A stretch of DNA of 64,000 bases from Polyangium spumosum (GTDB lineage Bacteria; Myxococcota_A; Polyangia; Polyangiales; Polyangiaceae). The position numbers were made by a program, and so were the translations under genes. The DNA lies in contig NZ_WJIE01000009.1 in assembly GCF_009649845.1 (NCBI RefSeq), forward strand, positions 160,685 through 224,684. Reading direction: 5' to 3'. Of the stretch, positions 1,371 to 50,186 are shown in pieces. Every line of letters starts with the position of its first letter. The stretch's first letter is position 1. The notes under the pieces were generated by a model that was not told where the DNA came from, did no database searches, and saw only the letters and a program-made list of their open reading frames with translations.

Positions 1371-2720
1371 TTAGGAGGGCTTGCGCAACGTCAAACGCGC
1401 CGTGCCTTCGAGGCCCTGCGCGCGCGCCGCCTCGACGACCGCCTCGCACACGGCCTCGTGCACGTGCGGCAGGAGCGGCGACGGGACGACCTCGCCTTGT
1501 TCGGCGCAGGACGCGATCGCGCGCGCCGCGGCGATACGCATCTCGGGCGTGATCGCGCGGCTCTCCACGGCGAGCGCGCCGCGGAAGAGGCCCGGGAACG
1601 CGAGCGCGTTGTTGATGCTGCGCCCGTCGCTGCAGAACGCCGCGCCCGCCGCCATCGCGTCCGTCGGCTCGATCTCGGGGTCCGGGTTCGACAGGGGGAA
1701 GATGACCTGGCCCGGCCGGATCCATTTCGGATCGATCAAGCCCGGTTTGCCCGTCGCCGCGATCACGATATCGGCCTCGCGCATCAGCGTCGGCAGGTCG
1801 ACCGGGTGCGCGCCCAGGCCCTTCAGCCAGTTCATGGCCTCCTCCGACCGGTCCGTCACGAGCACGTCCCGCGCCCCGTGCGCCATCATCAGCCGGGCGA
1901 TCGCGCTGCCGGCCGCGCCGAGCCCGATCTGCCCGACGCGCGCCTTCTCGAGCGAGACCCCCGTCATCTTGCAGGCGTTGAGCACCGCCGCCAGCGCCAC
2001 CGTGGCCGTGCCGTGCTGGTCGTCGTGCATGACGGGCTTCTCGAGCCGCTCGATGAGCTCCTCCTCGATGCGATAACAATCCGGGATGCGGATGTCCTCG
2101 AGGTGAATGCCGCCGAAGGTGAGGGAGAGGCGCAGGACCGTCTCCACGAACTCCTTCGGATCCAGCGTGTCCACGAGGATCGGCGAGGCGCTGATCCCCA
2201 CGAATTTATCGTAAAGGACGGCCTTTCCTTCCATGACCGGCAGCGACGCGAGCGGCCCGACGTTGCCGAGGCCGAGCACGCGCGTGCCGTTCGTGAAGAT
2301 ACCGACCGAGTTCCCGATCCCCGTGAGGTGCCGCGCGCGCTCGGGCTCACGCTCGATCGCCCGCGCGACGCGGGCCACGCCGGGCGTGTAGATGTAGCGC
2401 AAATCGCGCTGATGCCGGAGCTCGATCCGGCTTGTCATGTGGAGCTTGCCGCCCTTGTGCAGGTCGAAGACGCGGTCGATCGTGTCGAGGATCTCGACGC
2501 CGTCGACCTTGCGGACGGCCTCGATCACGCGGTCGCGCTGGCCCTCGTCCATGGTCTCGACGGTGACCTCGCGCAGCGTGTCGCTGTCCAGGCTGCGTAA
2601 GGTGGTGATGTCACCGAGCAGCCCGCCCTCCTCGGCGATGGCGGTGGCGAGGCTGGCGAGCTGGCCCACGCGGTGTTTGCATTTGACGCGAAGTACGGTG
2701 TCGAGGCTGGTCTTCCTCAT
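1371..2720 (-). CDS. NAD(P)-dependent malic enzyme, short form with N-terminal ACT-like domain
   Basis: Carries malic-enzyme motifs (VYTPGVA, GIGNSVG...LGLGNVGP, HDDQHGTA, the Rossmann GLGAAGSAIA, ALAFPG). The start ATG at 2718-2720 is a later in-frame Met than the ORF-track start. Confidence 0.85.
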   Translation of the reverse strand: MRKTSLDTVLRVKCKHRVGQLASLATAIAEEGGLLGDITTLRSLDSDTLREVTVETMDEGQRDRVIEAVRKVDGVEILDTIDRVFDLHKGGKLHMTSRIELRHQRDLRYIYTPGVARVARAIEREPERARHLTGIGNSVGIFTNGTRVLGLGNVGPLASLPVMEGKAVLYDKFVGISASPILVDTLDPKEFVETVLRLSLTFGGIHLEDIRIPDCYRIEEELIERLEKPVMHDDQHGTATVALAAVLNACKMTGVSLEKARVGQIGLGAAGSAIARLMMAHGARDVLVTDRSEEAMNWLKGLGAHPVDLPTLMREADIVIAATGKPGLIDPKWIRPGQVIFPLSNPDPEIEPTDAMAAGAAFCSDGRSINNALAFPGLFRGALAVESRAITPEMRIAAARAIASCAEQGEVVPSPLLPHVHEAVCEAVVEAARAQGLEGTARLTLRKPS

Positions 2721-2931
2721 GGGGGGCGCCGACCATACCACGAAGCGGAGCGAGTGGGAGAAGGGGGAACGCGGGCGGGCGGCAGGGCGGACGGAGTCGG
2801 GAGGGTCGGCAGAAAAATGACGCAGCTCACAGTTGCGTCCGAGCGTCCCCTGGTTGTAATCTGCGATCGAGCAAGGTCACGTGGGGTACACTCACGGGCC
2901 GACCTCCGCGTTTTTGACTCAGGAGTGTGAT

Positions 2932-3180
2932 ATGCAGACGAGCTTGCTGAACGACTTTCTCTCGGAGATGGTGCTCGACCCCGCGAAGCTCGCGGCGTAC
3001 ATCGTCGACCCGCAGGGGACGATGAAGGCCGCCGGGCTCGGCGCCGACGACCAGAAGGCCCTCGAGAGCACGGACCAGACCGCGATTCACGCCCGCATTG
3101 CGGACGGCGACGCGGCGGCGCGCGCGCACAAGGTCGGCACGGTGACCGATATTTACGCTTACGCGATGCAATTCGCGTAG
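2932..3180 (+). CDS. putative split-borosin precursor peptide (SonA-like), 82 aa
   Basis: ATG at 2932 is preceded by AGGAGT. The N-terminal helical region LLNDFLSEMVLDPAKLAAYIVDPQGTMKAAGLGADDQKALESTD resembles the SonA borosin-binding domain (LSDFF...NPEAVMRAHGLTDEQ), recalled from memory. The C-terminus VGTVTDIYAYAMQFA is hydrophobic. It lies 150 nt upstream of a borosin-type methyltransferase. Confidence 0.55.
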   Translation: MQTSLLNDFLSEMVLDPAKLAAYIVDPQGTMKAAGLGADDQKALESTDQTAIHARIADGDAAARAHKVGTVTDIYAYAMQFA

Positions 3181-3330
3181 CGTGCGCGCGCGGTCGTCAA
3201 GACCGGGGTACGCGGCGAACCCTGCGATGCAGTGCAGCGCAGGGGAATTGATGAATTCCGACCCGCTCGTGCCCGGCCCGCTCCACCCAGGGGCGAAGCC
3301 GGGCGTTTTCATTTTCGAGGAGGACGCTCG

Positions 3331-4164
3331 ATGAACAAAGGCTCGCTCGTCGTCGTGGGGACGGGCATACAGACCGTGGGACACATCACCCCGGAGGCCA
3401 TCGCCTGGATCAAATGGGCGGACACGGTCCTCTATCTCGTCGCGGATCTGGTCGCAGAGAACGCGATCCTGAAGATCAAGCCGGATGCCCAGACCCTCGA
3501 GCATCTGTACGAGAAAAACAAGCCGCGGTACTTGACCTACCGACAGATGATGAATCGCATGATCGATTCCGTGCGAAATGGAAACCGCACGTGCGTCGCG
3601 CTTTATGGCCACCCGGGCGTCTTCGCGTATCCGGCGCACGCCGCCATCCGGAAGCTGCGCGAGGAGGGGTACGAGGCCCGCATGTTGCCCGGCGTCTCGG
3701 CCGAGGACTGCCTGTTCGCCGACCTCAACGTGGATCCCGCGACGTACGGCTGTCAGAGCTACGAGGCGACGCATTTCGTGCTCACGCGGCGACGCCCCGA
3801 CACCAGCGCCTCGCTCATCCTGTGGCAGCCCGACTCGTTCGGGCACGTCCTGTCGAGCCTCGACGTCCGGCAGAGCGCCATCGCCGTGCTGGCCGAGTAT
3901 CTGGCGAAGTTCTACTCCCTCGAGCACCGCCTCTGCATCTACGAGGCGCCCATGTACATAGGCTGCGCACCCCGGATGGACTGGGTGAAGCTCGGCGAGT
4001 TCACCCAGGCCAAACTCACGCCCGCGAGCACGCTTTATTTCCCGCCGGCCGAGGTTGCCCCCATGGACCATGCGCTGGCGCAATCCCTCGGCCTGCCGTC
4101 GATGGCCCAGGTGCAGGAGGACCTCGCGCGCCTCGATGCGTCGCCTGCCGCGAAGGCGGAGTGA
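3331..4164 (+). CDS. class III SAM (tetrapyrrole-methylase fold) alpha-N-methyltransferase, borosin OphMA/SonM-like
   Basis: ATG at 3331 with a GAGGAGGA RBS. Motifs [64 protein letters not shown] and LYFPP...LGLP parallel the OphMA motifs [56 protein letters not shown] and FYVPP...LGLP. Confidence 0.75.
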   Translation: [277 protein letters not shown]

Positions 4165-4174
4165 CGCGCTCCCC

Positions 4175-5389
4175 TCAAAAAGCCTCGGGGCACCACGGCG
4201 CGCGGGTCGAGCGGAAGAGCCGATCGGCCCGCCCCGCCGCGCCCTCTTCGAGCACCTCGACGCGCCCCCCGTCGGCGAGCTGCGTGAACGAGATCCCACC
4301 GAGATAGGCCGACCCGAGCGCCTCGGCGGGCAGCCGCAGGTCCGGCGATTCGTTCGTCGGTACCGCGCGGCCCTCCGCGCCGTCGAGGCGGAATCGCCCC
4401 GTGTTCCAGGGGCAAAACGTATCCTCGATCTCGAGCACGATCGAATCCCGCGCCCCGTACGTGCGCGCTGCGAGCGCCGCGGGCACGTCCACGATACGCA
4501 CCCACAGCGCGTCGTACGTGCTGAAATGCAGGCAGCGTGGCTCGGCGAGCAGGACGAAGAGAGGGTGATCGACGGGCAGGTTCGTCGCCGTTACCTGGCG
4601 CATGAGGTCGATGTCGAGGAGGTAACGCCAGACGGCGCGCGTGCCGGCGGGGCTCTGGCCGACGGCCTCGATGACGTTCAGGGTCCCGGCGGTGACGTGC
4701 CCGTCCCATTTGTGTTCGACGCGGTAGAGCGCATACGCCTCGGGGCGACCGTCGAGCTCGACGAACACGCGCTGCAGCGGGCCCTTGCCTGCGCGCGCCG
4801 CCTCGGGGTCGGCGAGGCGCCGCCTCTGCCACCACGCGGCGGAGCGGGAGGGCATTCCAGGGTGGAGCTTTCGGGCGCTGTCCCAGAGGGGCGGGAAGAG
4901 CTCGGCCGCCTGGGCCTCGGTGACGAGGCGGGCGCGGCAGGAGAGGGGACGCCGGTCGGCGAAGGAGGCCGCTGATCGCTCGAGGGAGATGTCGCCCGCG
5001 AGGGAGGCGAGCCCATAACCATACCGCCCATAGATGGGGCCTTCGGTGGTCCACAACGTGGCGATGGCCTGCTTGCGGGCGCGGGCCTCGTCGAGGTGCA
5101 CGCGCATCATGGCCGAGAGGACGCCGCGGCGGCGGTGCGTCGGCATGACCCCGACCATGGTCAGGCCCGCGCAGGCGACCTCGCCGCCGCCGGGGACGCT
5201 GAGGGTGATCGACAACGCGCCGCCGCCGCCGACGACCGCGCCGTCTTCGTACGCCACGAAGCGCGTCTCGAATTCGGCCATGGGGCCGCGCGCGGGGGGC
5301 TCGGGTGGGGGGGTGATCCCGAAGGCCGTGCGGATGGGCAGGAGGAGGTCCTCGATGTGCTCGGGACCCACCAGGCGGACGTCGATCAT
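4175..5389 (-). CDS. Eis-like GNAT N-acetyltransferase (GNAT plus a C-terminal SCP2-like region)
   Basis: Length 404 aa. The GNAT core contains HRRRGVLSAMM. The overall Eis/COG4552-like architecture is recognised from memory. It is convergent with the methyltransferase. Confidence 0.65.
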   Translation of the reverse strand: MIDVRLVGPEHIEDLLLPIRTAFGITPPPEPPARGPMAEFETRFVAYEDGAVVGGGGALSITLSVPGGGEVACAGLTMVGVMPTHRRRGVLSAMMRVHLDEARARKQAIATLWTTEGPIYGRYGYGLASLAGDISLERSAASFADRRPLSCRARLVTEAQAAELFPPLWDSARKLHPGMPSRSAAWWQRRRLADPEAARAGKGPLQRVFVELDGRPEAYALYRVEHKWDGHVTAGTLNVIEAVGQSPAGTRAVWRYLLDIDLMRQVTATNLPVDHPLFVLLAEPRCLHFSTYDALWVRIVDVPAALAARTYGARDSIVLEIEDTFCPWNTGRFRLDGAEGRAVPTNESPDLRLPAEALGSAYLGGISFTQLADGGRVEVLEEGAAGRADRLFRSTRAPWCPEAF

Positions 5390-5429: not shown

Positions 5430-6719
5430 TCAGTGGCAGCAAGTCCCGCTCGCCCAGGCCACGCCGCCGCCGGACCGGTAGATCACCACGTTGCCGTCGT
5501 TCTGCACGGCGAGGTTCGCGAAGTAATTCGACGACCCGTTCGTGTTCGTGTCCCATACGGCATTGCCATTGGACTTGTAGATCACGAGGTTGCCGTCCTC
5601 CTGCATGATCACGCGGTCGCCGCCGTCGCCGTTCGTGTTCGAGTCCCAGAGCGCCTGGCTGCCCTTGTAGAGCACGAAGTTGCCGTCGCTCTGGAACTTG
5701 AGCTGGAAGCGGCCGTCGCACGACCAGACGGATTGCTCCGCCCCCAATCCCTGGCCGGCGTTCAGCCAGCCGCAGCCCGAGGGCGACGTGTACGCGCCGT
5801 AACGCGACCAGATGCCGGCGTGATCGTCGTAATTGAGCGAGGTGTCGTTGCCGCTGTAATAGGCGTACATGGTCGCGCTCGAGACCGTCGAGTGGCCGAG
5901 GCCGAGGGCGTGCCCGATCTCGTGCAGCGCGACCGTCTCCAGGTACGCCGACGACCAGCCCTCGGCGTCGTCGAAATGCACGTCGCCGCCGAGGCCGCCG
6001 CCGGGGGACCAGGCGTGGGCGAGCACGCCGCCCGAGCCGTCGAACGTATTGCTGGTGCCGCAACCATGGTCGCCCGTGTAGAACCCGAACGAGATGTTCT
6101 CGCCGGAGGTGACCTCGTTGAAGTTCAGGTTCGAGATGGAGGTCCACGAGCGAATGGCGTTCCAGAGCGCCGTGCGGACGGTCGACGCGCTGATGTCGGA
6201 GGTGTAATTCGCGAACTTGTACGTCAGGGTCGTGGACGACCAGGTCCCTCCGAGGTGCGAATAGGGGTCGATGTCGAGATCCCATCGCGGGACGACGCTC
6301 GGCGGGTCGTAATAATCGGGGTGACCGCAGCGGGGCATCTCCATGACCTTCTGCGTCTCGGCGTCGACGACGCCGGTCACGGCCAGGCCATTCTGGGCCT
6401 GGAAGAGGCGCACGCCCTCCTCGATCGCCTCGTCGAAGCGCGCTGGGTCGGCCGGCTCGCGCGAGACGGCGGGGGTCCAGCCGGGGAAATGCTCGGCGAG
6501 CTCCTCGTTCTGGTAATACCCGTACCGGCGAAGGTACTCGTAGACCGCCTTCACGTCCTGCCCCTGCGCGCCGAGGCCGAGGCCCGCGGATTCCATGGTG
6601 GTCTCGTCGCCGAGCGTCGTGATGTCGTCGGCCGCGCAGCCCACGAGGGCGAGCGAAGCAGCAGCGAGGGGCGCGAGGAAAAGAGCGAGGCGAGAGTCGA
6701 AGCGGTTCGTCGAGGCCAT
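5430..6719 (-). CDS. secreted matrixin-like (M10) zinc metalloprotease with a C-terminal bulb-type (B-) lectin domain
   Basis: Signal peptide followed by a PG-binding-like region, PRCGHPD (cysteine-switch-like), HEIGHALGLGH (HExxHxxGxxH) and a Met-turn region. The C-terminal stretch QSDGNFVLY...WDSNT...QEDGNLVIY...WDTNT is bulb-lectin-like. Start 6719 is chosen because a GGAGA RBS precedes it. Confidence 0.75.
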   Translation of the reverse strand: MASTNRFDSRLALFLAPLAAASLALVGCAADDITTLGDETTMESAGLGLGAQGQDVKAVYEYLRRYGYYQNEELAEHFPGWTPAVSREPADPARFDEAIEEGVRLFQAQNGLAVTGVVDAETQKVMEMPRCGHPDYYDPPSVVPRWDLDIDPYSHLGGTWSSTTLTYKFANYTSDISASTVRTALWNAIRSWTSISNLNFNEVTSGENISFGFYTGDHGCGTSNTFDGSGGVLAHAWSPGGGLGGDVHFDDAEGWSSAYLETVALHEIGHALGLGHSTVSSATMYAYYSGNDTSLNYDDHAGIWSRYGAYTSPSGCGWLNAGQGLGAEQSVWSCDGRFQLKFQSDGNFVLYKGSQALWDSNTNGDGGDRVIMQEDGNLVIYKSNGNAVWDTNTNGSSNYFANLAVQNDGNVVIYRSGGGVAWASGTCCH

Positions 6720-6949
6720 CTGAACATTCTCCATTGAGGGGGACGCGAGCTTCCTTCGCCTCTCACCTATCGCAACGGCCATGCCAGCTCGGCGGGACGC
6801 GGCTAACTGTCCGGAAGGATTGGGGGTCTTGGGGATCGAGGTGGAGGGCGAGCTCTCCGGGCGGGTGAGGGTTGAGGGCGCGGACCTCCAAGGGTGGAGG
6901 CTGGGACCACCAACCGGGTGGGCGGGGCGCGGGGCGCGGGGCGCGGGGG

Positions 6950-7310
6950 CACCACGACGTCGTCGTCGTCGTCTGCAATCACGCCGGCATCGTGTGCCGT
7001 CACACCCTCATCGTCTGCAACCACGACGTCGTCGTCTGCAATCACGCCGGCATCGTGTGCCGTCACACCCTCATCGTCTGCAACCACGACGTCGTCGTCT
7101 GCAATCACGCCGGCATCGTGTGCCTTCACACCGGCGTCGTCTGCAACCACGACGGCATCGTCTGCAATCACGCCGGCATCGTCTGCAATCACGACGGCAT
7201 CGTGTGCCGTCAGACCGGCGTCGTTTGCAATCACGACGGCGTCGTCTGCAACCACGACGGCGTCGTCTGCAACCACGACGGCGTCGTCTGCAATCACGAC
7301 GGCGGGACCC
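6950..7310. repeat. tandem minisatellite with a 21-nt unit (consensus GGCGTCGTCTGCAACCACGAC), about 17 copies, with a 63-nt higher-order unit repeated three times
   Basis: Read directly from the sequence. The copies carry point variants (aac/aat, gac/gcc, ggc/atc). It has no spacers, so it is not a CRISPR. Confidence 0.85.
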
Positions 7311-7331
7311 GCTCGGGCCCACGCCGACCGA

Positions 7332-7790
7332 TCAGAACCGCCCCACCACCACGATCCCCTGCGTCTGCGCACTCACGACCGGCGCCACGGTCACCTTCAC
7401 CGGCGCCGCGGCCGGGTGCAGCTCCGGGTTGATCCACGCGAGCGCCAATCCAAGAAACACCCCCGCCGCGCCGACGCCGAGCGACGTCGTCGCCGTACGC
7501 CCGTCCGCCGTCGCTTGCTCGCGCAGGCGGTAGCCCTCGGCGTCGCACTTGTCCGGATCCGACGTGAGGCAATGCTGCTTCAATGCAGCGGTCGCCTCGT
7601 CCGAGCGCGCCGCGTAAATGGCCCCCGCGACGATGGCGCCGACCCCGGCGCCGATCACGAGCGAGCCCGCGACACGAGGGCCCGTCCAGAAAGGAGGCGA
7701 CGGCGGAGGCGAAGGCGCCGCGGGCGGAGGCTCGGCCGAGGCGATCGCGGGGAGGAGGAGTGCGGCGAGGAAAATGGGCAGGGGGCGCAT
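7332..7790 (-). CDS. hypothetical secreted/membrane protein
   Basis: N-terminal signal peptide MRPLPIFLAALLLPAIASA and hydrophobic Gly/Ala segments. Its start lies 2 nt from the stop of the upstream ATPase gene. Confidence 0.45.
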   Translation of the reverse strand: MRPLPIFLAALLLPAIASAEPPPAAPSPPPSPPFWTGPRVAGSLVIGAGVGAIVAGAIYAARSDEATAALKQHCLTSDPDKCDAEGYRLREQATADGRTATTSLGVGAAGVFLGLALAWINPELHPAAAPVKVTVAPVVSAQTQGIVVVGRF

Positions 7791-7791
7791 G

Positions 7792-10700
7792 TCAGAGGTC
7801 GAAGAGCTCGTCGTCCTGGCCCGCGTCTTCCTCGGCGATCCGCGCCTCGGCGTGCTTGGCGACCGATTCGAAGAATTTTTGCTCGGGCGATCTCGGCGCC
7901 AATCGAGAGGCCGCCTCGCGGGCCTGCGAGCGCAGGAGCGCCTCGCTGCGGTCCGAGCGGATGCCCGATCGAGGCCGCGCCTGGCCCGTCACCACCGAGA
8001 AGAGCGCGCTGCGGACACGCTCGAAAGAGGCCTCGCCCGCCGCGTGCGCCCGCCGGAGCAGCGTCGCCACGAGCTCGAGGTGCGCGAAGAGGAAGGTCGG
8101 CGGCGCCTCTTCGAGCAGCGCGGAGACCGCGTCGAGCTCGGCCTCGCCGCCCTCCTGCACCCACTCGCTGAGGACCTCGATCGTCGGCAACGCAAAGGAG
8201 CGCGAGGCGTCGTGGAAGAGGCGCGCGGCATGGAAGCGGACCCAGCCGACGCGGGCCCGCGCGAGGTGGCGGACGCGGCGCAGGAGCGGGAGCCATTCGG
8301 GGGAGCGCGAGAGGCCCGAGAGGATCGTCGAGAGGCCCTCGGGCGGGAGAGGCTCGTACTCCTCGGCGACGGCGACGATGCCCGACGCGGCGCGCGCGAT
8401 GCGCTCGATGAAGAGGCCCGTGACGTCCTCGGGCAGGCGCTTGCCCGCGTGGTGGAGGAAGCGCATCGTGGAGTGGCCGTCGAGGCTCCGCGCCGCGCCG
8501 AGGCGCGTGAGGAAGAGGATGATCTCCTCCTCGGAGAGGGCCCCCTCGGTGAAGAGGCCACCCGCGTCGAGGGCGCCGAAGAGGGCCTCGGCGACCTCGG
8601 GGCCCTCGGAGAGATCCACGCCGACGGCGAGGTCGACCGCGTCACGCGGGGAGGACCGCGCGAGGGTGCGAAGCGCGCCGAGCGCGGCGCGGCGGACGAA
8701 GCCGTCCCGATGGCCGAGCAGGTGCCGGAGCGCCTCGCGATCGCCGGGCAGGGGCTTTTCGACCCAGCGATGGAAGACCTGCGCGAGCGAGGCGCAGAGC
8801 GTGGGGTCCTCGCCCGCGACGATCCGCGCGACGAGGGCCTCGGCGCGATCGGGCGAGGCCTCGCGGAGCGCATGCAGCAAGGAGGCGACGTGCGGGCCGA
8901 GCGGGCTGTCGGGCGCGGCCATGACGGCCTCGCAGATCGCCGCCGCGGAGGCGGGGTGCATGCGGGAGAGGACGTGCAGGAGCAGGCGCGGCGAGCCGCT
9001 CTTGCCCGCGAGCGCGAGGGCCTCGAGCGCCGCGCCGAGCCACGCGGCCGTCTCCGCAGGCGGGCGGCCACAGGCGAGCATCTCGTCGACGACGGCGCGA
9101 CACGTGTCGGCCGAGCGGCGCTCGGCGCCGCCACGCTCGACCTCACCCGAGCCAGGGATCTCGCTCGGCGGCAGGTCGATGAGGCCACGCTGCGCGGGCG
9201 AGCGTTGCGTGAGGGCCTCGTAGAGCCTGCGCTCGGTCGAGGTGGGCACGGCGCCCGCGGCGGCCTCGGCGGCGGCGCGGACCTCGGCGGAGCTCGCGCG
9301 CCGGGCCGCGCGGCGGAGCGCGTCGGCGACGGCGAAGTGCACGAGCGCGTCGGTCGAGCCCTCGGCCGCGGCGCTCAGCATCGTGAGGATCCCGAGGCGC
9401 TCCTCGTCGCGCCACCCAGGCTCCATCTGGTCGCCGAGCGAGAGGCCGGAGCCGTCGGCGAGCACGCGCTCGAGGCCGCTGACGCCGGAGAGAGCGGCGC
9501 GCCGGACCGAGGATTTGGCACAACGCGCGAGCGTGGCGAGGGCCTGCTTGCGCAAGGCGCGGCGGCGCTCGTCCGTGGGGCCGGCGTCGACGGCGCCGTC
9601 GGCGAGGAAGGTGTCGAGCACGTCGAGCGGCGAGTGCTTGTGCTCGTGGGCGTCGTCCGCGGCGAGCCAGCGATCCACGGCGTCGAGCAGGGCCTCGTGC
9701 ACGCCGAGGGGGCGGGCCGAGGCGCGCGAGGCGAGCTCGCGCAGGACACGCATCGGGTGGTCGGGGTGCGGGCTCTGGAGGCGGAGGTCGTCGCGGCCGA
9801 GCTCCCAGAGCAGGTCGGCGGCGCGAGGCAGGTGCGCGAGGTGCAGGCCCACGCGGCGCAGGATCGCGGGCAGCTCGTAGAGCACGGAGGCCGCCGAGAA
9901 GAGGGCGCCCGCGCCGCGGGTGGACTCGCTCTGCGCAGGGGAGCGGAGGACCGCCGCGGCGAGGTCGAGCATCGCGGCCGGGTGATCCGAGGAGAGCTCA
10001 CGCAGGCCGCCGAGGAGGCGGCATCGGTCGGCCGACGAGGCGGCCTCGACGGCGCCGCGGACGTGGCGGAAGAGGGCGGCGACGATCTCGGCGGCGGCGC
10101 CGTCGGGCAAGGAGGGTCCGTCGAGCTCGCCGACGTTGCGGAGGAGCGGGACGACGGCGTGCGCGCCGAAGCGTGACTCGAGGGCCCGCGCGCGTTCTTC
10201 GAGCGAGCCCGTGAGCGGGCCCGAGGGGCCAACGAGGGCGCGGTGGAGCGCGTGATCCGAGAGGGAGCCGGGCACGATCCGCGCGCCGTGCGGGCCACGC
10301 TCGACGACGCCCGCGGCCTCGAGTGCGCGGAGGGCCGAGACGAGGTCGCGGCGGCGACAGCCGAGCAGATCCCCCGCGCCCTGGAGGAAGCGCTCGTCCG
10401 AGGTGCGCACCGGCGCGAGGATCGCGACGAGCGCGAGCACGCCCGCGAGCAGCTTCGGGTCGCCCGCGGCGGCGGAGCGGAGCAGGAGCAGCTCGTGGCC
10501 CCGATCGAGCGCGCACGCGGCGAGCTCGCCCTTGCCGAGCGCCACCGGATGGATGGCCCCTTCCCGCACGAGCTGGCCCGCGAGCGTGATCACGAACGGA
10601 TGCCCCTCGGCGAGCTCGGCGAGCCTCGTGGCGTGTTCACGCGCGTCGTCGCCGAGCACGTGCCGCGCGGTGGCCTCGGCCTCGGTCGGCGAGAGCGCGC

Positions 10701-11238
10701 CGAGCGCGGGCAGGACACGCACGGCGTCCGTCGAGAGCCCGACCTGCGCGAAGAGCGCCGAGAGGCGCGGCTGGCCCGCGGGGCGCGTGGTGAAGACGAA
10801 GCGCACGTCGCGGCGCTCGAGGGCCATGGAGAGCAGCGTCGCGGGCGCGGCCTTGCGGCCCGCGTCGTCGATCACGAGCAGGCAAGGGCCGGGCGGCAGG
10901 CGCGTGGTCGGCGGCGCGGTCCCGACGGTGACGTCGGTCGCGAAGCGGAGCATCGTGCCGATACGCTGCGCGGCGAGCGCGTCGGCGAGCGCGCAGAGCA
11001 GGCTCGTCTTGCCCGTGCCCGCGCGGCCTTCCAGCACGGCGACACGCGCGGGGCTGCGCGCGCTGGCGAAGTCGACGAGCGCCGCGAGGATCTCGGCGCG
11101 CCCGCCGAAGGGGAGCGTTTCCTGGAAGGGGCGGCCCGCGGCGAGCGCGGAAGCTTCGAACTCGCTCGGGCCGAGGAGCGCCACGCCGTGCTCGACGTGC
11201 GCGTCCGGAGGAGGGGGAAAGCCGAGGGTCGTCTCCAT
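7792..11238 (-). CDS. large P-loop NTPase (AAA/STAND-like) with a long alpha-helical repeat C-terminal region
   Basis: Walker A GRAGTGKTS and Walker B-like CLLVIDDAG. About 900 aa of Leu/Ala-rich helical repeats follow. Length 1148 aa. Confidence 0.6.
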   Translation of the reverse strand: METTLGFPPPPDAHVEHGVALLGPSEFEASALAAGRPFQETLPFGGRAEILAALVDFASARSPARVAVLEGRAGTGKTSLLCALADALAAQRIGTMLRFATDVTVGTAPPTTRLPPGPCLLVIDDAGRKAAPATLLSMALERRDVRFVFTTRPAGQPRLSALFAQVGLSTDAVRVLPALGALSPTEAEATARHVLGDDAREHATRLAELAEGHPFVITLAGQLVREGAIHPVALGKGELAACALDRGHELLLLRSAAAGDPKLLAGVLALVAILAPVRTSDERFLQGAGDLLGCRRRDLVSALRALEAAGVVERGPHGARIVPGSLSDHALHRALVGPSGPLTGSLEERARALESRFGAHAVVPLLRNVGELDGPSLPDGAAAEIVAALFRHVRGAVEAASSADRCRLLGGLRELSSDHPAAMLDLAAAVLRSPAQSESTRGAGALFSAASVLYELPAILRRVGLHLAHLPRAADLLWELGRDDLRLQSPHPDHPMRVLRELASRASARPLGVHEALLDAVDRWLAADDAHEHKHSPLDVLDTFLADGAVDAGPTDERRRALRKQALATLARCAKSSVRRAALSGVSGLERVLADGSGLSLGDQMEPGWRDEERLGILTMLSAAAEGSTDALVHFAVADALRRAARRASSAEVRAAAEAAAGAVPTSTERRLYEALTQRSPAQRGLIDLPPSEIPGSGEVERGGAERRSADTCRAVVDEMLACGRPPAETAAWLGAALEALALAGKSGSPRLLLHVLSRMHPASAAAICEAVMAAPDSPLGPHVASLLHALREASPDRAEALVARIVAGEDPTLCASLAQVFHRWVEKPLPGDREALRHLLGHRDGFVRRAALGALRTLARSSPRDAVDLAVGVDLSEGPEVAEALFGALDAGGLFTEGALSEEEIILFLTRLGAARSLDGHSTMRFLHHAGKRLPEDVTGLFIERIARAASGIVAVAEEYEPLPPEGLSTILSGLSRSPEWLPLLRRVRHLARARVGWVRFHAARLFHDASRSFALPTIEVLSEWVQEGGEAELDAVSALLEEAPPTFLFAHLELVATLLRRAHAAGEASFERVRSALFSVVTGQARPRSGIRSDRSEALLRSQAREAASRLAPRSPEQKFFESVAKHAEARIAEEDAGQDDELFDL

Positions 11239-34668: not shown

Positions 34669-37391
34669 TCAGGGGATCAGGGTGGGGTTCGGGTAGCAGC
34701 AGCCGGTGATGCAGCTCTCGCCGGCGGGGCAAGGATCCTGGCCGGGCTGGCCGCACTTCTGCACGCCGACCGGGCAGGACTGCTCCACGCATTCGGGCGG
34801 CAGGTCCGGCTTGCCGATGCAGACCTCGCAGTCCTCGCAGGTGTTGAGGCAGGCGGTGACCTGCGTGCACGGCTTGCACATCGACGGATCGTTGATCGTG
34901 TTGATGTTGCAGCTCCCCGTGCCGGAGGGGTTCTCCGAGCCGAGCCAGACCGTGTAAGGCAGGCCGGGCAGGGCGCAGCAGCCGAAGCAGTCACAGCCGT
35001 TCGGCGTCAGCGGGCCGCAATAATCGAGGCAGGCCTGCGATTGCGACTGGAATGCCTGGGCGCACGTGCCGCCGTAGCCCGGGATGCTCGTGCTCGGGTT
35101 GTACGCGCACTGGCTGCCCTCCGGCGGGTAGTCGGGGGCGACGGAGAGCGGGTCGCACTTGTGGCTCCAGAAGCAATCGTCGTTGCCCGCGCCGGTGTCC
35201 TGATCGAAGTAACAATCGGACTTGCAGGGCGAGTTGTTCTGGCCGGAGATGCCGCCGTAGAAGCTGTCCTCGGTGTTGTCGCAGGGGCCGAGGCATTGCT
35301 CGTCGGCCGCGTCGGTCTTGCAGTCGCCGTCGTTGTCGATGCAGTCGCCGCAGGCGTAGGTCTTCCCCTGGCAGGTCGCGGGCTGGCAGAAGTTGCCGCA
35401 GCCGCCCTGCGCGGGGTCGCACGTCTCGCCGCAGCCGCAGAGGCCGTTGTTCGGGATGCCCTTGCAGGCGTCGAGGATCGGGTCGCAGACGTCGCTCGTG
35501 CAGGCGATGCCGTCGTTGCAGACGGGCGGCGAGCCCGCGTTGCAGCCGGTCGCCGAGCAGGTCTCGGTGCCGTTGCAGAAGAGGCCGTCGTCGCAGATGA
35601 AGTCCTGCGGGAAGTGCGCGCAGGTGCCCGTGGGGTCGCTGCACTGGTCGTAGGTGCACGCGACGCCGTCGTCACAGTCGACGGGCGTGCCGCCCATGCA
35701 GCCGACGAGCGGGTTGCAGGTCTCGACGCCGTTGCAGGTGAAGCCGTCGTTGCAGACGTCGTCGTTCGGCGTGTTCGTGCACGCGCCCGTCTGCGGGTCG
35801 CAGGCGTCGGCGGTGCAGGGCACGCCGTCGTTGCAGTTGACGGGCGCGCTCGCCTTGCAGACGACGTCGCAGTACTCGACGCCGTTGCACGCGTCGCCGT
35901 CGCTGCACTCGGCGTCCGTCGTGCAGGGCTGGGCCGTCGTGCAGCCGCCGATCTGGGGCACGCAGAGCTCTCCCGCGGGGCACTTGCTGCTGTCCGCGGT
36001 CGAGGTGCAGGCGCCGTTTGGCTCCTGGCAGGCCTCGTTCGTGCAGGCGATGCCGTCGGACGCGCAGATCACGGCCGTGCCGGCCTTGCAGCCCGTGCCG
36101 GCGGCGCCGCCGATCGGGTCACACGACTCGACGCCGTTGCAGATCTGGCCGTCCTGGCAGGCCGCGTGGTTCGGCAAGAAGACGCACTTCTGTTGCCCGT
36201 TGTCGCAGCTATCGGCCGTGCAGGAGAGGTTGTCGTTGCAGACGACCGGCGTCCCGGGCTGGCAGCCGACGCCCGCCGCGCAGGTCTCGACGCCGTTGCA
36301 GAAGGCGCCGTCGTCGCAGGCCACGTTGCTCGGCGCGTTCGTGCAGCCATCGGTGGCCTCGTCGCAGCCGTCGGTCGTGCAGGTGATGCCGTCGTTGCAG
36401 TCGACGGGCGCGCCGGGCTTGCAGCCGGCGAGTTTGTCGCAGGTCTCGGCGCCGTTGCAGAACAGGCCGTCCGTGCACTTGCCGTCGTTCTCGACGTGCT
36501 TGCAGCCGCCGGAGGCCTGGTCGCAGAAGTCGTCGGTGCAGGCGACGCCGTCGTCGCAGTCGAGCGGCGTCCCTGCCTTGCACCCGAGCACGCCGCACGT
36601 CTCGACGCCGTTGCAGGCGACGTTGTCGTCGCAGAGGCTGTCGCTCGGCATGTTCATGCAGCCGTCGAACTGCTCGTTGCAGGTGTCGACGGTGCACGAG
36701 ATGCCGTCGTCGCAGGGCGATCCGGAGCTCGGCGTGCAGCCGGTGACGGGATCGCCGTTCGAGGGGTCGCAGGTCTCGACGCCGTCGCAGAACTGGCCGT
36801 TGTCGCAGGCCGCGCGGCTCGGCGTGTTGACGCATGCGCCGGAGACGCACGTGTCGACGGTACACCCGATGGCGTCGTCGCAATCGGCGTTGCTCACGCA
36901 TTCGGGCGTCTGACCGCCCATGCCGCCGGTGCCGGCCATGCCGCCGGTGCCGGCCATGCCGCCCATGCCGCCGGTGCCGGCCATCACGCCGCCGCCCATG
37001 CCGCCGACGCCGCCGAAGCCACCGCTGCCGGCCATGACGCCGCCGATGCCGCCTGCGCCGCCGGAGCCGCCGATGCCGCCTGCGCCGCCTGCGCCGCCCG
37101 CACCTCCGAGCCCGCCTGCGCCGCCGATGCCGCCCGCGCCGCCTGCGCCGCCCGCGCCGCCGATGCCGCCCGCACCTCCGAGCCCGCCCGCGCCGCCGAA
37201 GCCGCCCGCACCGCCTGCGCCGCCTGCGCCGCCGTTGCCGCCGGAGCCGGCCATGATGCCGCCGTTGCCGCCGCTCCCGGCCTGGGTCGACGCGCCGGCC
37301 CCGCTCGAGATGTCACCGCCGCCACCACACCCGATCGCGGCCAATGCCACCCACGCGAACCAATGAGGTCTCGATCTCCGCCGCTCGAGCA
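34669..37391 (-). CDS. giant secreted protein with a Gly-rich N-region and about 15 tandem 'Myxococcales cysteine-rich repeats' (CDDGxxCTxDxCD...CNGxETC)
   Basis: Start ATG at 37391 (MLERRRSRPHWFAWVALAAIGCGGG, signal/lipobox). Contains GGAGG runs and reiterated Cys motifs. The ORF-track N-terminal extension is antisense to the DUF58 gene and I rejected it. Confidence 0.7.
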
Positions 37392-37611
37392 TGGCCAACT
37401 CCCTTTCGCAAGAAGCCGTTCGACCGCTCAGTGTAAGCGAAAAACTACGCTGACGCGGTATGGTAAATGTTGTTACCACCTCTTCTTCCTTTGATTGTTG
37501 CGCAAACCACATGTTTGTGAACCGGGCCACGGAGGTGGCGTGGTCCTGGGCCCGAGGGCGTGGTGCGCGACGCTCTCGACGCCGCGGCGGCGCTGGGCCA
37601 GAAGGGCTCGG

Positions 37612-38508
37612 ATGCAGGAGACTCGTCCGGGGATCCCCTCCCGGCTCCTCGATCCGGCTTTTGTTCGCGAGCTCGAGGTGCTCAGGCGGCGGCTCGAGAT
37701 CCGCGCGCGCTCGGGCGCCTCGGGCGAACACGCGGCGCGGCGGCGCGGCGGCTCGGCCGAGTTCCAGGAGCACAGGCCCTACAGCCCCGGCGACGACCTG
37801 CGCCGCATCGACTGGGCCGCCTACGCGCGCACCGACGAGCCGGTGCTGAAGCTCTTTCGCGCCGAGGAAGACGTCATCGTGCGGCTGCTCGTGGACACGT
37901 CGGCGAGCTTGGATTTCGGCGAGCCGCCGAAGTTCGAGGCCGCGTGCCGCATCGCCGCGGCGTTCGGGTACATGGCCCTCGCGGCCTCGGAGCGGGCGCA
38001 GGTGATCTCGGCAGGGGAGGGGATCCAGCGCGAAGAGACGCCGGTGCGAGGCCGGAGCGGGCTGCCGTCGCTGCTGCGCGCGCTCGGGGCGATCACGCCG
38101 GGCGGCGGGACGGATCTCGCCCGCGCCATCGATCGGCTGATACAAAAGAACAAGCGTGCAGGCATGCTCCTCGTCGTCTCCGATTTCCTCGACGGCGGTC
38201 CGCTCGGCCCGGCGCTCGCGCGCGCGGCGGCCGCGGGCCACGATCTCGTGCTCGTGCAGGTCGTCGCGCCCGAGGAGATCGAGCCCCCATACGAGGGCGA
38301 CTGGGCGCTCGAGGACGCCGAGACCGGCGCGGTCGTCGAGGTGACCATGGATGCCGCGGCGATCGAGGCGTACGTGCTCCGGTTCGCGGGCCTCTGCGAG
38401 GAGCTCAGGCAAATGGCGAAGCGGCTGCGCGCGACGTACGTGCGGGTTCGTACGGACGAACCCCTGGAGAGCGCGGTCCGAAGGATCGTGTCGAGGAGCA
38501 TCGATTAG
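37612..38508 (+). CDS. DUF58 family protein (MoxR-associated vWA-like)
   Basis: N-terminal LDPAFVRELEVLRRRLEIRAR...EFQEHRPYSPGDDLRRIDW is typical of DUF58. A vWA-like core follows. Confidence 0.7.
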   Translation: MQETRPGIPSRLLDPAFVRELEVLRRRLEIRARSGASGEHAARRRGGSAEFQEHRPYSPGDDLRRIDWAAYARTDEPVLKLFRAEEDVIVRLLVDTSASLDFGEPPKFEAACRIAAAFGYMALAASERAQVISAGEGIQREETPVRGRSGLPSLLRALGAITPGGGTDLARAIDRLIQKNKRAGMLLVVSDFLDGGPLGPALARAAAAGHDLVLVQVVAPEEIEPPYEGDWALEDAETGAVVEVTMDAAAIEAYVLRFAGLCEELRQMAKRLRATYVRVRTDEPLESAVRRIVSRSID

Positions 38509-49724: not shown

Positions 49725-50186
49725 ATGAGCAAGCGACTGTACGTGGGCAATTTGGCCTTCCATTCCACCGAGGAGAGCGTCCGCAGCGCTTTCCAGGCCG
49801 CCGGGGTGGAGGTGGTGGGTGTCCAGGTCATGACCGATCGGGTGACGGGGCAATCGCGCGGGTTCGGTTTCGTGGACGTGGCGGGCGACAAGGAAGCGCA
49901 GGCGGCGATCGATGCGCTTCACGGCAAGAGCCTGGACGGTCGCACCCTGACCGTGAACGAGGCGCGTGAGCGCACGCCGGGCGGCGGCGGCGGTGGTGGT
50001 GGCTTCCGCGGCGGCGGCGGCGGCATGGGCGGCGGCGGCGGCGGTGGTTACGGCGGCGGCGGCGGTGGTGGCGGCGGCGGTCGTGGCGGCGGCGGCGGTG
50101 GTCGTGGCGGCGGCGATCGGCGCGGCGGTCGTGGCGGCGGCGGCGGCCGGGATCGTGGCGGTCGGGATCGCGGCGATCGCTGGTAG
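49725..50186 (+). CDS. glycine-rich RRM-type RNA-binding protein
   Basis: RNP2 LYVGNL and RNP1 RGFGFVDV, followed by a long GGGGRGG tail. A roughly 400-nt 5' leader precedes it. Confidence 0.8.
   Translation: MSKRLYVGNLAFHSTEESVRSAFQAAGVEVVGVQVMTDRVTGQSRGFGFVDVAGDKEAQAAIDALHGKSLDGRTLTVNEARERTPGGGGGGGGFRGGGGGMGGGGGGGYGGGGGGGGGGRGGGGGGRGGGDRRGGRGGGGGRDRGGRDRGDRW

Follow-up and report, generated by a model that had tools for sequence, protein, structure and literature searches.

The subject of this analysis is a tandem array of a 21-nucleotide (nt) unit in the genome of Polyangium spumosum, found in a 64 000-nt stretch of contig NZ_WJIE01000009.1 (the whole stretch that was analysed, called the window below). 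The array lies between two genes of the minus strand. Upstream of it, a gene at 7332..7790 (minus strand) encodes a hypothetical protein of 152 amino acids (aa) with a signal peptide, which ends in ...VVVGRF followed by a TGA stop at 7332-7334. Downstream, a gene at 5430..6719 (minus strand) encodes a matrixin metalloprotease with PG_binding_1, Peptidase_M10 and B_lectin domains. Beyond these two lie a STAND NTPase gene (7792-11238, minus strand) and a GNAT acetyltransferase gene (4175-5389, minus strand). The products of all four are identical to protein entries under the name P. spumosum. As the original prediction from the sequence had stated, the array falls between the stop at 7332 and the matrixin gene, and neither flanking gene reads through it. 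That prediction had left two possibilities: a non-coding satellite whose composition imitates coding DNA, or a cryptic gene for a Cys/His-rich repeat peptide. Our results favour the former, and the array is probably a young minisatellite.

The repeat array

Tandem Repeats Finder reported one array, at 6969-7303, with a period of 21 nt (16.0 copies, 79% matches) and a further period of 63 nt (5.3 copies, 88% matches). On a 21-nt grid, the stretch 6965..7300 resolves into 16 complete units, all in register and with zero indels, that fall into 10 sequence types with the consensus GGCGTCGTCTGCAACCACGAC (TCGTSTGCMRYCACRMCGKCRTCGT is an example of a query string for the unit). Together, these two analyses bear out the predicted head-to-tail repeat and its 63-nt higher-order period. 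The 63-mers at 6965-7027 and 7028-7090 share one sequence, from which the third 63-mer departs at 4 positions. The array is opened by a degenerate partial unit with a (CGT)n run (6950..6964, CACCACGACGTCGTC) and is adjoined by a heptamer repeat, (GCGGGGC) x3.9, at 6922..6948, which the relatives discussed below do not have. None of these repeats is assigned a strand. The GC content of the array, at ~0.63-0.66, is slightly under the mean of the window, which is 71% GC. The heptamer repeat places five G-runs on the plus strand, where a G-quadruplex could form.

When up to three mismatches were allowed, 0 matches to the consensus unit were expected in the window; 12 were found within the array and a single further one outside it, at 36529-36549 on the minus strand. 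A degenerate 25-nt pattern that bridges the junction between units gave 10 matches in the window. The same pattern, run against 185,579 species genomes, gave five single sites in two unrelated genes and no tandem match. One of the two genes is betaproteobacterial and reads MTFVCNHDGVVYEK; the other comes from Bacteroidales. The betaproteobacterial near-matches (L002 1531-1555, L003 4945-4969 and L005 6081-6105) fall in a conserved gene reading ...YPARWGVSGVMTFVCNHDGVVYEKNLGR..., and we rejected this VCNHDGVV match as a relative of the array, considering it a coincidence of a single motif within a normal protein. A 30-nt Cys-to-His pattern had no match in the metagenomes of the Joint Genome Institute (JGI) or in viral contigs, and literature searches returned nothing on the array. 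The statement that the array occupies a single locus covers the 64-kb window and the genomes of other species, the rest of the P. spumosum genome lying outside the search; one P. spumosum genome is on record.

Reading frames across the array

Four of the six reading frames are open across the whole array, namely all three plus-strand frames and one on the minus strand that reads VVIADDA, and a second minus-strand frame is open for 83 codons. This follows from a unit length that is a multiple of three and from the scarcity of stop codons in GC-rich DNA. The original prediction had described the plus-strand heptad VVCNHDG as the only clean frame, which is not what we find. It was right, however, that this frame encodes Cys/His heptads within an open reading frame (ORF) at 6872..7432 (plus strand), in the form (G[IV]VC[NR]H[DAT])n. 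We judge that neither this ORF nor the minus-strand ORF giving (VVIADDA)n (6803..7372) is a gene. It had also been claimed that every third codon position in the plus frame is C. This holds for the consensus unit but not for the array as a whole, where the GC fraction at third positions (GC3) is 0.89. The Asn codon of the plus frame is the rare AAT in 11 units and AAC in 5, as against an AAC:AAT ratio of 175:10 in the 22 confident genes of the window.

A codon log-odds model was trained on 22 genes of the window, for which the mean score was 0.63. The plus frame scored 0.36. The VVIADDA frame scored 0.02, has a GC3 of 0.64 against ~0.9 in real genes and uses the rare codons GCA, ATT and GTT in every unit. 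As a chance baseline, random 21-mers were repeated in tandem and the best stop-free frame of each was scored. A score of 0.36 or more was reached by 77% of the 21-mers sampled from the window and by 34% of composition-matched random 21-mers; a stop-free frame with G or C at all third positions arose in 62% and 25%, respectively. The argument from composition made in the original prediction thus seems to have almost no weight, because the array is seven codons repeated rather than 112 independent codons and because the baseline is as high as 34-77%. The GC-rich third positions of the plus frame are probably a by-product of composition, not a sign of coding.

To describe the variation amongst the units, we joined the 10 unit types in a minimum spanning tree of 15 steps. 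In the plus frame, 3 of these are synonymous and 12 non-synonymous, giving a ratio of non-synonymous to synonymous change (pN/pS) of 1.04; on the same tree, pN/pS in the minus-strand VVIADDA frame is 0.74. The variable columns are spread 4/3/3 over codon positions 1/2/3 (n = 10). The view that the differences between variant copies are mainly synonymous or conservative is therefore not borne out. The substitutions fit neutral drift in both the plus and the minus frame, with the low power that 15 steps afford. The concentration of variation at synonymous sites that purifying selection on the plus frame would leave was not seen, again at low power. Together with the chance baseline, this neutral pattern supports the part of the original prediction that proposed a non-coding satellite with coding-like composition.

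The slot in related species and the origin of the array

Syntenic loci were reached through the matrixin orthologues of P. jinanense (L006, L007), Polyangium sp. y55x31 (L009) and sp. 6x1 (L010). The array is absent from these three species and from sp. 15x6. In all three, the gene order is STAND NTPase, a protein of 151-163 aa, a lipoprotein of 384-393 aa, variable small genes on the opposite strand, and matrixin; the lipoprotein has a (GGSGGAG)n repeat and a Cys-rich C-terminal part. By blastn, homology to P. spumosum reaches 7328, which is 4 nt beyond the stop of the 152-aa gene, and restarts at 6914 in P. jinanense or at ~6802 in the other two. On these breakpoints and the gene content of the relatives, the segment specific to P. 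spumosum is 6915..7327 (no strand), and it consists of the heptamer repeat, the 21-nt array and a 27-nt spacer. These 413 bp stand in place of 2,576 bp in P. jinanense (L006 3231-5806) and of the comparable interval in sp. y55x31 and sp. 6x1. The relatives' segment contains no counterpart or progenitor of the unit or of any other part of the 413 bp, and the relatives' 393-aa and 144-aa genes were not found elsewhere in the window. Either P. spumosum would have lost the 2.6 kb, or its sister group would have acquired them.

The slot is hypervariable (L006 3231-5806; L009 2963-5929; L010 2575-5930; L013 1-2320), and its small opposite-strand genes differ by species. In P. jinanense, the strand that corresponds to the plus strand of the window carries there a gene for a 144-aa Q-rich lipoprotein (L006 5210-5644). 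It reads MRKLMMGAAAALLLAAC... and then (GAGQQQQ)n, and its coding repeats have periods of 15 and 21 nt. In sp. 15x6 (L013 1323-1808), a 30-nt array of 16 copies encodes a Q-rich lipoprotein, MRKVVVMGAAATLLLVGC... and then (GAGQQGAVQQ)n. The gene caller annotated this array on the opposite strand, as a 304-aa gene reading (LLPGPLLHSA)n. That call is probably on the wrong strand, because the other strand encodes a homologue of the P. jinanense 144-aa gene. Judged from these comparisons, we take the slot to be a hot spot prone to both rearrangement and repeat expansion.

The Q-rich lipoprotein minisatellites and the P. spumosum array share the slot and the strand, periods that are multiples of three (15, 21 and 30 nt), copy numbers of no more than 16 and several open frames. 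They differ in that the Q-rich lipoprotein has an ATG, a signal peptide and a lipobox (MRK...LLAAC / LLLVGC) and occurs in at least two species; the unit sequences are unrelated.

We put the probability at roughly 75% that the array is a young non-coding minisatellite, i.e. a bacterial variable-number tandem repeat (VNTR), specific to the P. spumosum lineage. As expected of a minisatellite, whose units are 10-100 nt long, the units run head to tail far beyond chance (13 matches against 0 expected). They appear to lie outside functional coding sequence, with the stop at 7332 on one side and a conserved promoter region on the other. The array also has the lineage-specific or rapidly evolving character of this class, being absent from four Polyangium species and containing identical 63-mers. 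In outline, a 21-nt seed with the self-complementary 13-mer ACGACG-G-CGTCGT may have been expanded by slipped-strand mispairing, and 63-nt triplets may then have been duplicated via unequal recombination, the latest of them still identical. In P. spumosum, which lacks the relatives' ~2.6 kb, the slot consists of 413 bp of simple repeats that connect the 152-aa stop codon with the conserved control DNA upstream of the sigma-54-dependent matrixin gene. The most plausible incidental effect of the array would be that of a spacer that folds into hairpins and impedes transcription running on from the STAND/152-aa operon into matrixin.

The closest known parallel amongst bacterial VNTRs is provided by the mycobacterial interspersed repetitive unit (MIRU)-VNTR loci of Mycobacterium tuberculosis, a dispersed family of ~40 loci with units of 46-101 bp. 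Like these, the array is head to tail, sits in a GC-rich genome between co-oriented genes, is open in several frames, is lineage-specific and would grow or shrink by slippage or recombination. Unlike them, it has a 21-nt unit with a 63-nt higher order and was seen at one locus, in the one P. spumosum genome. The biological weight of the finding is small: it would add another to the lineage-specific minisatellites of bacteria and mark a hot spot of rearrangement. The array would serve as a marker for typing P. spumosum strains. It also carries a caution, in that a repeat with a multiple-of-three period in a genome of 70% GC is open in several frames and often has 'preferred' codons by chance; the wrong-strand gene call in sp. 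15x6 is the same kind of mistake.

Several observations weigh against a non-coding minisatellite. The neutrality test had low power, as no more than 15 substitutions could be inferred. All 16 units have the same Cys codon, and 15 of them keep the His codon. The score of the plus frame is one that real genes also reach (5th percentile 0.28), and it exceeds the 99th percentile of off-frame sequence (0.22). A repeat lipoprotein gene on the same strand occupies the slot in P. jinanense and sp. 15x6, so there is a precedent for a plus-strand gene at this position. Finally, the GenBank protein MRG95846, numbered between the flanking proteins MRG95845 (matrixin) and MRG95847 (152-aa), could not be traced. 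It may be a coding sequence called in the repeat region (6782-7332), and none of the 26 candidate ORF products described below was present in the protein collection.

A first alternative is that the array is a relic of a plus-strand repeat gene, for a small secreted protein or lipoprotein, which lost its 5′ end, including start, signal peptide and lipobox, in the deletion, so that a coding-like frame was inherited and now drifts neutrally. The relatives' repeat lipoprotein gene has the same position and strand, is divergently oriented and carries 15-, 21- and 30-nt coding repeats. The plus frame of the array has the best codon score, with its GC3 of 0.89, and its present variation is neutral. 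Such a frame arises from 77% of the 21-mers drawn from mostly coding DNA, so the seed most likely came from coding sequence. The unit is, however, dissimilar to the repeats and to every other part of the relatives' slot, the heptad protein was not found amongst 5.8 billion sequences, and no plus frame upstream of the array contains a trace of a signal peptide. The perfect identity between repeats also points to an expansion that was recent, not ancient. We therefore regard a relic as unlikely, although it fares best of the alternatives to a minisatellite.

Palindromes, the matrixin control region and a possible gene

The control region of the matrixin gene adjoins the array. The matrixin start is ATG 6719 in RefSeq (429 aa) and ATG 6782 in GenBank (450 aa). 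The RefSeq start appears the plausible one, because a conserved GGAGA precedes it and the GenBank start falls inside a promoter. We aligned eight matrixin upstream regions from Polyangium and metagenomic loci (alignment A1). A sigma-54-type promoter at 6771..6786 (minus strand; TGGCATGGCCGTTGCG, TGGCAT-N5-TTGCG, i.e. GG-N10-GC) has a core that is invariant in all eight, and it is the sole match in the 64 kb, against 0.05 expected. The palindrome CCTCCA-N4-TGGAGG (6885..6900, no strand; 0 expected) is perfect in six of the eight loci and has one to three single-base changes in the other two. It lies ~108 bp upstream of the -24 element. At sigma-54 promoters, such a distance is the usual position of a site for an enhancer-binding protein, and the palindrome is probably a site of this kind. 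The window codes for no protein with a GAFTGA motif. From the palindrome it is 65 bp to the beginning of the array, which lies outside the promoter-enhancer module; being upstream of the enhancer-like palindrome, it should be able to change in copy number without altering the geometry of the promoter. The comparison made for the array thus exposed a conserved sigma-54-type promoter and an enhancer-like palindrome of a predatory-type secreted metalloprotease.

The array has palindromes of its own. Where one consensus unit meets the next, the junction forms the 13-nt palindrome ACGACG-G-CGTCGT. This is perfect at five unit junctions, has five of its six pairs at two more and has only two or three of the six at four junctions. 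Three of the perfect copies are 21 nt apart at 7233..7287 (palindrome scan; no strand), and the partial unit contributes a sixth perfect copy (6954-6966). As RNA, both strands of the array fold more stably than shuffled controls (minus strand, z = -3.4; plus strand, z = -4.8). Outside the array, the 64-kb window shows no enrichment of the palindrome. Scans around the array for sigma-70 promoters and intrinsic terminators found none, including no terminator with a T-tract, and Rfam returned two matches only, both with E close to 1 and far under the gathering scores.

These data bear on a second alternative, that the array is a functional cis element: either a terminator or insulator array of hairpins 3′ of the STAND/152-aa operon, or a set of phased palindromic regulator sites for the sigma-54 matrixin promoter. 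The 13-nt palindromes at 21-bp spacing (two helical turns) and the folding energy on both strands are in keeping with this, as is the position of the array, which follows a stop codon by 30 nt and precedes the enhancer-like palindrome by 65 bp. That no canonical intrinsic terminator was found nearby points the same way. Yet the palindromes are perfect at only 5 of 16 junctions and degraded to two or three pairs at four, they are not enriched elsewhere in the window, and neither an Rfam match nor a T-tract supports a terminator. An enhancer array should moreover be conserved with the matrixin promoter in orthologous loci. The orthologous loci keep the promoter and CCTCCA-N4-TGGAGG without an array, which occurs in P. 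spumosum only, promoter and palindrome being present in all eight. A cis element seems to us slightly less likely still than a relic, and a terminator or insulator function would amount at most to the putative spacer role mentioned above.

Repetitive extragenic palindromic (REP) sequences and bacterial interspersed mosaic elements (BIMEs) are extragenic palindromes with hundreds of dispersed copies per genome. The array resembles them in its imperfect palindromes just 3′ of a stop codon and in the possibility of hairpins in a transcript, but it was seen as a single tandem array, with no dispersed copies found in the window or in the genomes of other species. The palindromic 13-mers of the array, 21 bp apart and upstream of a sigma-54-type promoter, recall iterons and sigma-54 upstream activating sequences. 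Unlike such phased arrays of binding sites, most of its units carry degraded palindromes, and what the orthologous promoters share is CCTCCA-N4-TGGAGG instead.

A third alternative is the cryptic plus-strand gene of the original prediction, using the ORF at 6872-7432 or an internal GTG start and encoding a Cys/His heptad peptide that would be metal-binding or a multi-core precursor. Its open frame, GC3 of 0.89 and codon score of 0.36, the invariant Cys codon with His in 15 of 16 units and the plus-strand gene in the relatives' slot all speak for it; the chance baseline, the pN/pS of 1.04 and the dominance of the rare AAT codon speak against it. Its initiation context is also wrong. The sole start upstream of the array is TTG 6872, which has GAGGG directly before it and so lacks the spacing of a ribosome-binding site; it sits between the sigma-54-type promoter and the CCTCCA-N4-TGGAGG palindrome. 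The first ~14 codons (6872-6914) align with P. jinanense DNA and cross the conserved palindrome at 6885-6900, so the N-terminus of the ORF is conserved regulatory DNA and not gene-specific. For the in-frame GTG codons within the array, no ribosome-binding site was found, and upstream of the array no plus frame has an ATG, a signal peptide or a lipobox. At the other end, the C-terminal tail overlaps the 152-aa gene in antisense by ~100 nt.

Protein-level searches gave no support to such a gene. Neither the plus-frame nor the minus-frame ORF had a homologue at E ≤ 1e-3 amongst 5.8 billion clustered proteins. Neither matched itself there, so neither ORF has been annotated by any source. We also looked up 26 candidate ORF products that cover or abut the array, in various frames and from various starts, alongside four control products of the flanking genes; none of the 26 was present in a collection of 15 billion proteins. 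No called gene covers the array. An exhaustive HMMER phmmer pass with the heptad peptide against 1.84 billion representatives returned 575 matches with a typical identity of ~30%. We rejected these as homologues, as their repeat units are related neither to one another nor to that of the array (SETGVSC, GLVCHAA, NSFTVCN, DGILCMH, SGCVCNH, ANTAGxV, CxDDGxC). What they share is, in our reading, periodicity, because a periodic query re-scores one weak match repeatedly and so inflates the E-values. Pfam searches of all frames gave sub-threshold noise only, and AlphaFold predicted no confident fold for the heptad peptide (mean pLDDT, the predicted local distance difference test score, of 42). No metagenomic relatives of the 152-aa protein were found.

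A multi-core precursor of a ribosomally synthesized and post-translationally modified peptide (RiPP) would come with a leader and with genes for modification and transport, and this combination is missing here. The neighbours encode the GNAT acetyltransferase, matrixin, 152-aa protein and STAND NTPase, a penicillin amidase and a malic enzyme; amongst them there are no RiPP enzymes (radical-SAM, YcaO or lanthipeptide-type) and no protease or export genes of the RiPP type. With no homologue found, no start that has a properly spaced ribosome-binding site and no enzymes nearby, and with related loci that have no array, the cryptic Cys/His repeat peptide or multi-core precursor is left unsupported and we consider it improbable. 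A newborn, species-specific plus-strand gene of ~16 Cys-x-His heptads, e.g. for a metal-binding peptide, which would be divergent from the sigma-54 promoter of matrixin and share its strand with the lipoprotein gene of the sister species, is equally improbable.

The weakest alternative, that the (VVIADDA)n ORF of the minus strand codes, either by itself or as an extension of the 152-aa protein through a frameshift, is very improbable: this frame is open across the array on the strand of both neighbours and has a weak match to the Pfam Alanine_zipper family (22.2 bits, under the cut-off of 23.1), but it has the low GC3, codon score and rare codons given above, no homologues and a pN/pS of 0.74 that is indistinguishable from neutral, and the 152-aa protein ends in ...GRF and a stop like its orthologues, with homology ending there.

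The other side of the matrixin gene also varies between species. The malic-enzyme gene is next or next but one to matrixin in sp. 6x1 and sp. y55x31, and in P. spumosum the two are separated by a GNAT acetyltransferase gene and a tetrapyrrole-methylase-like ORF (1371-5389). Downstream of matrixin, P. jinanense has DUF2169, DcrB and VgrG genes instead. From this gene order, both sides of the matrixin gene appear to be rearrangement-prone.

Elsewhere in the window, the unit resembles a gene with Cys-rich repeats (35.5-36.8 kb) over 18 nt, through the DGVVC motif, and we put this down to chance. The gene concerned (34669-38412, minus strand) encodes a large secreted protein and is the source of the weak 18-nt similarities to the 21-nt unit. 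It has ~159-nt Cys-rich repeats of the CxDGxxC type, at 36202-36715, and a Gly-rich (GGAGG)n part, at 36914-37273, with periods of 9, 18 and 27 nt. At 49980-50179, the GGC triplet is repeated 56 times in a long run that has higher periods of 15 and 48 nt.

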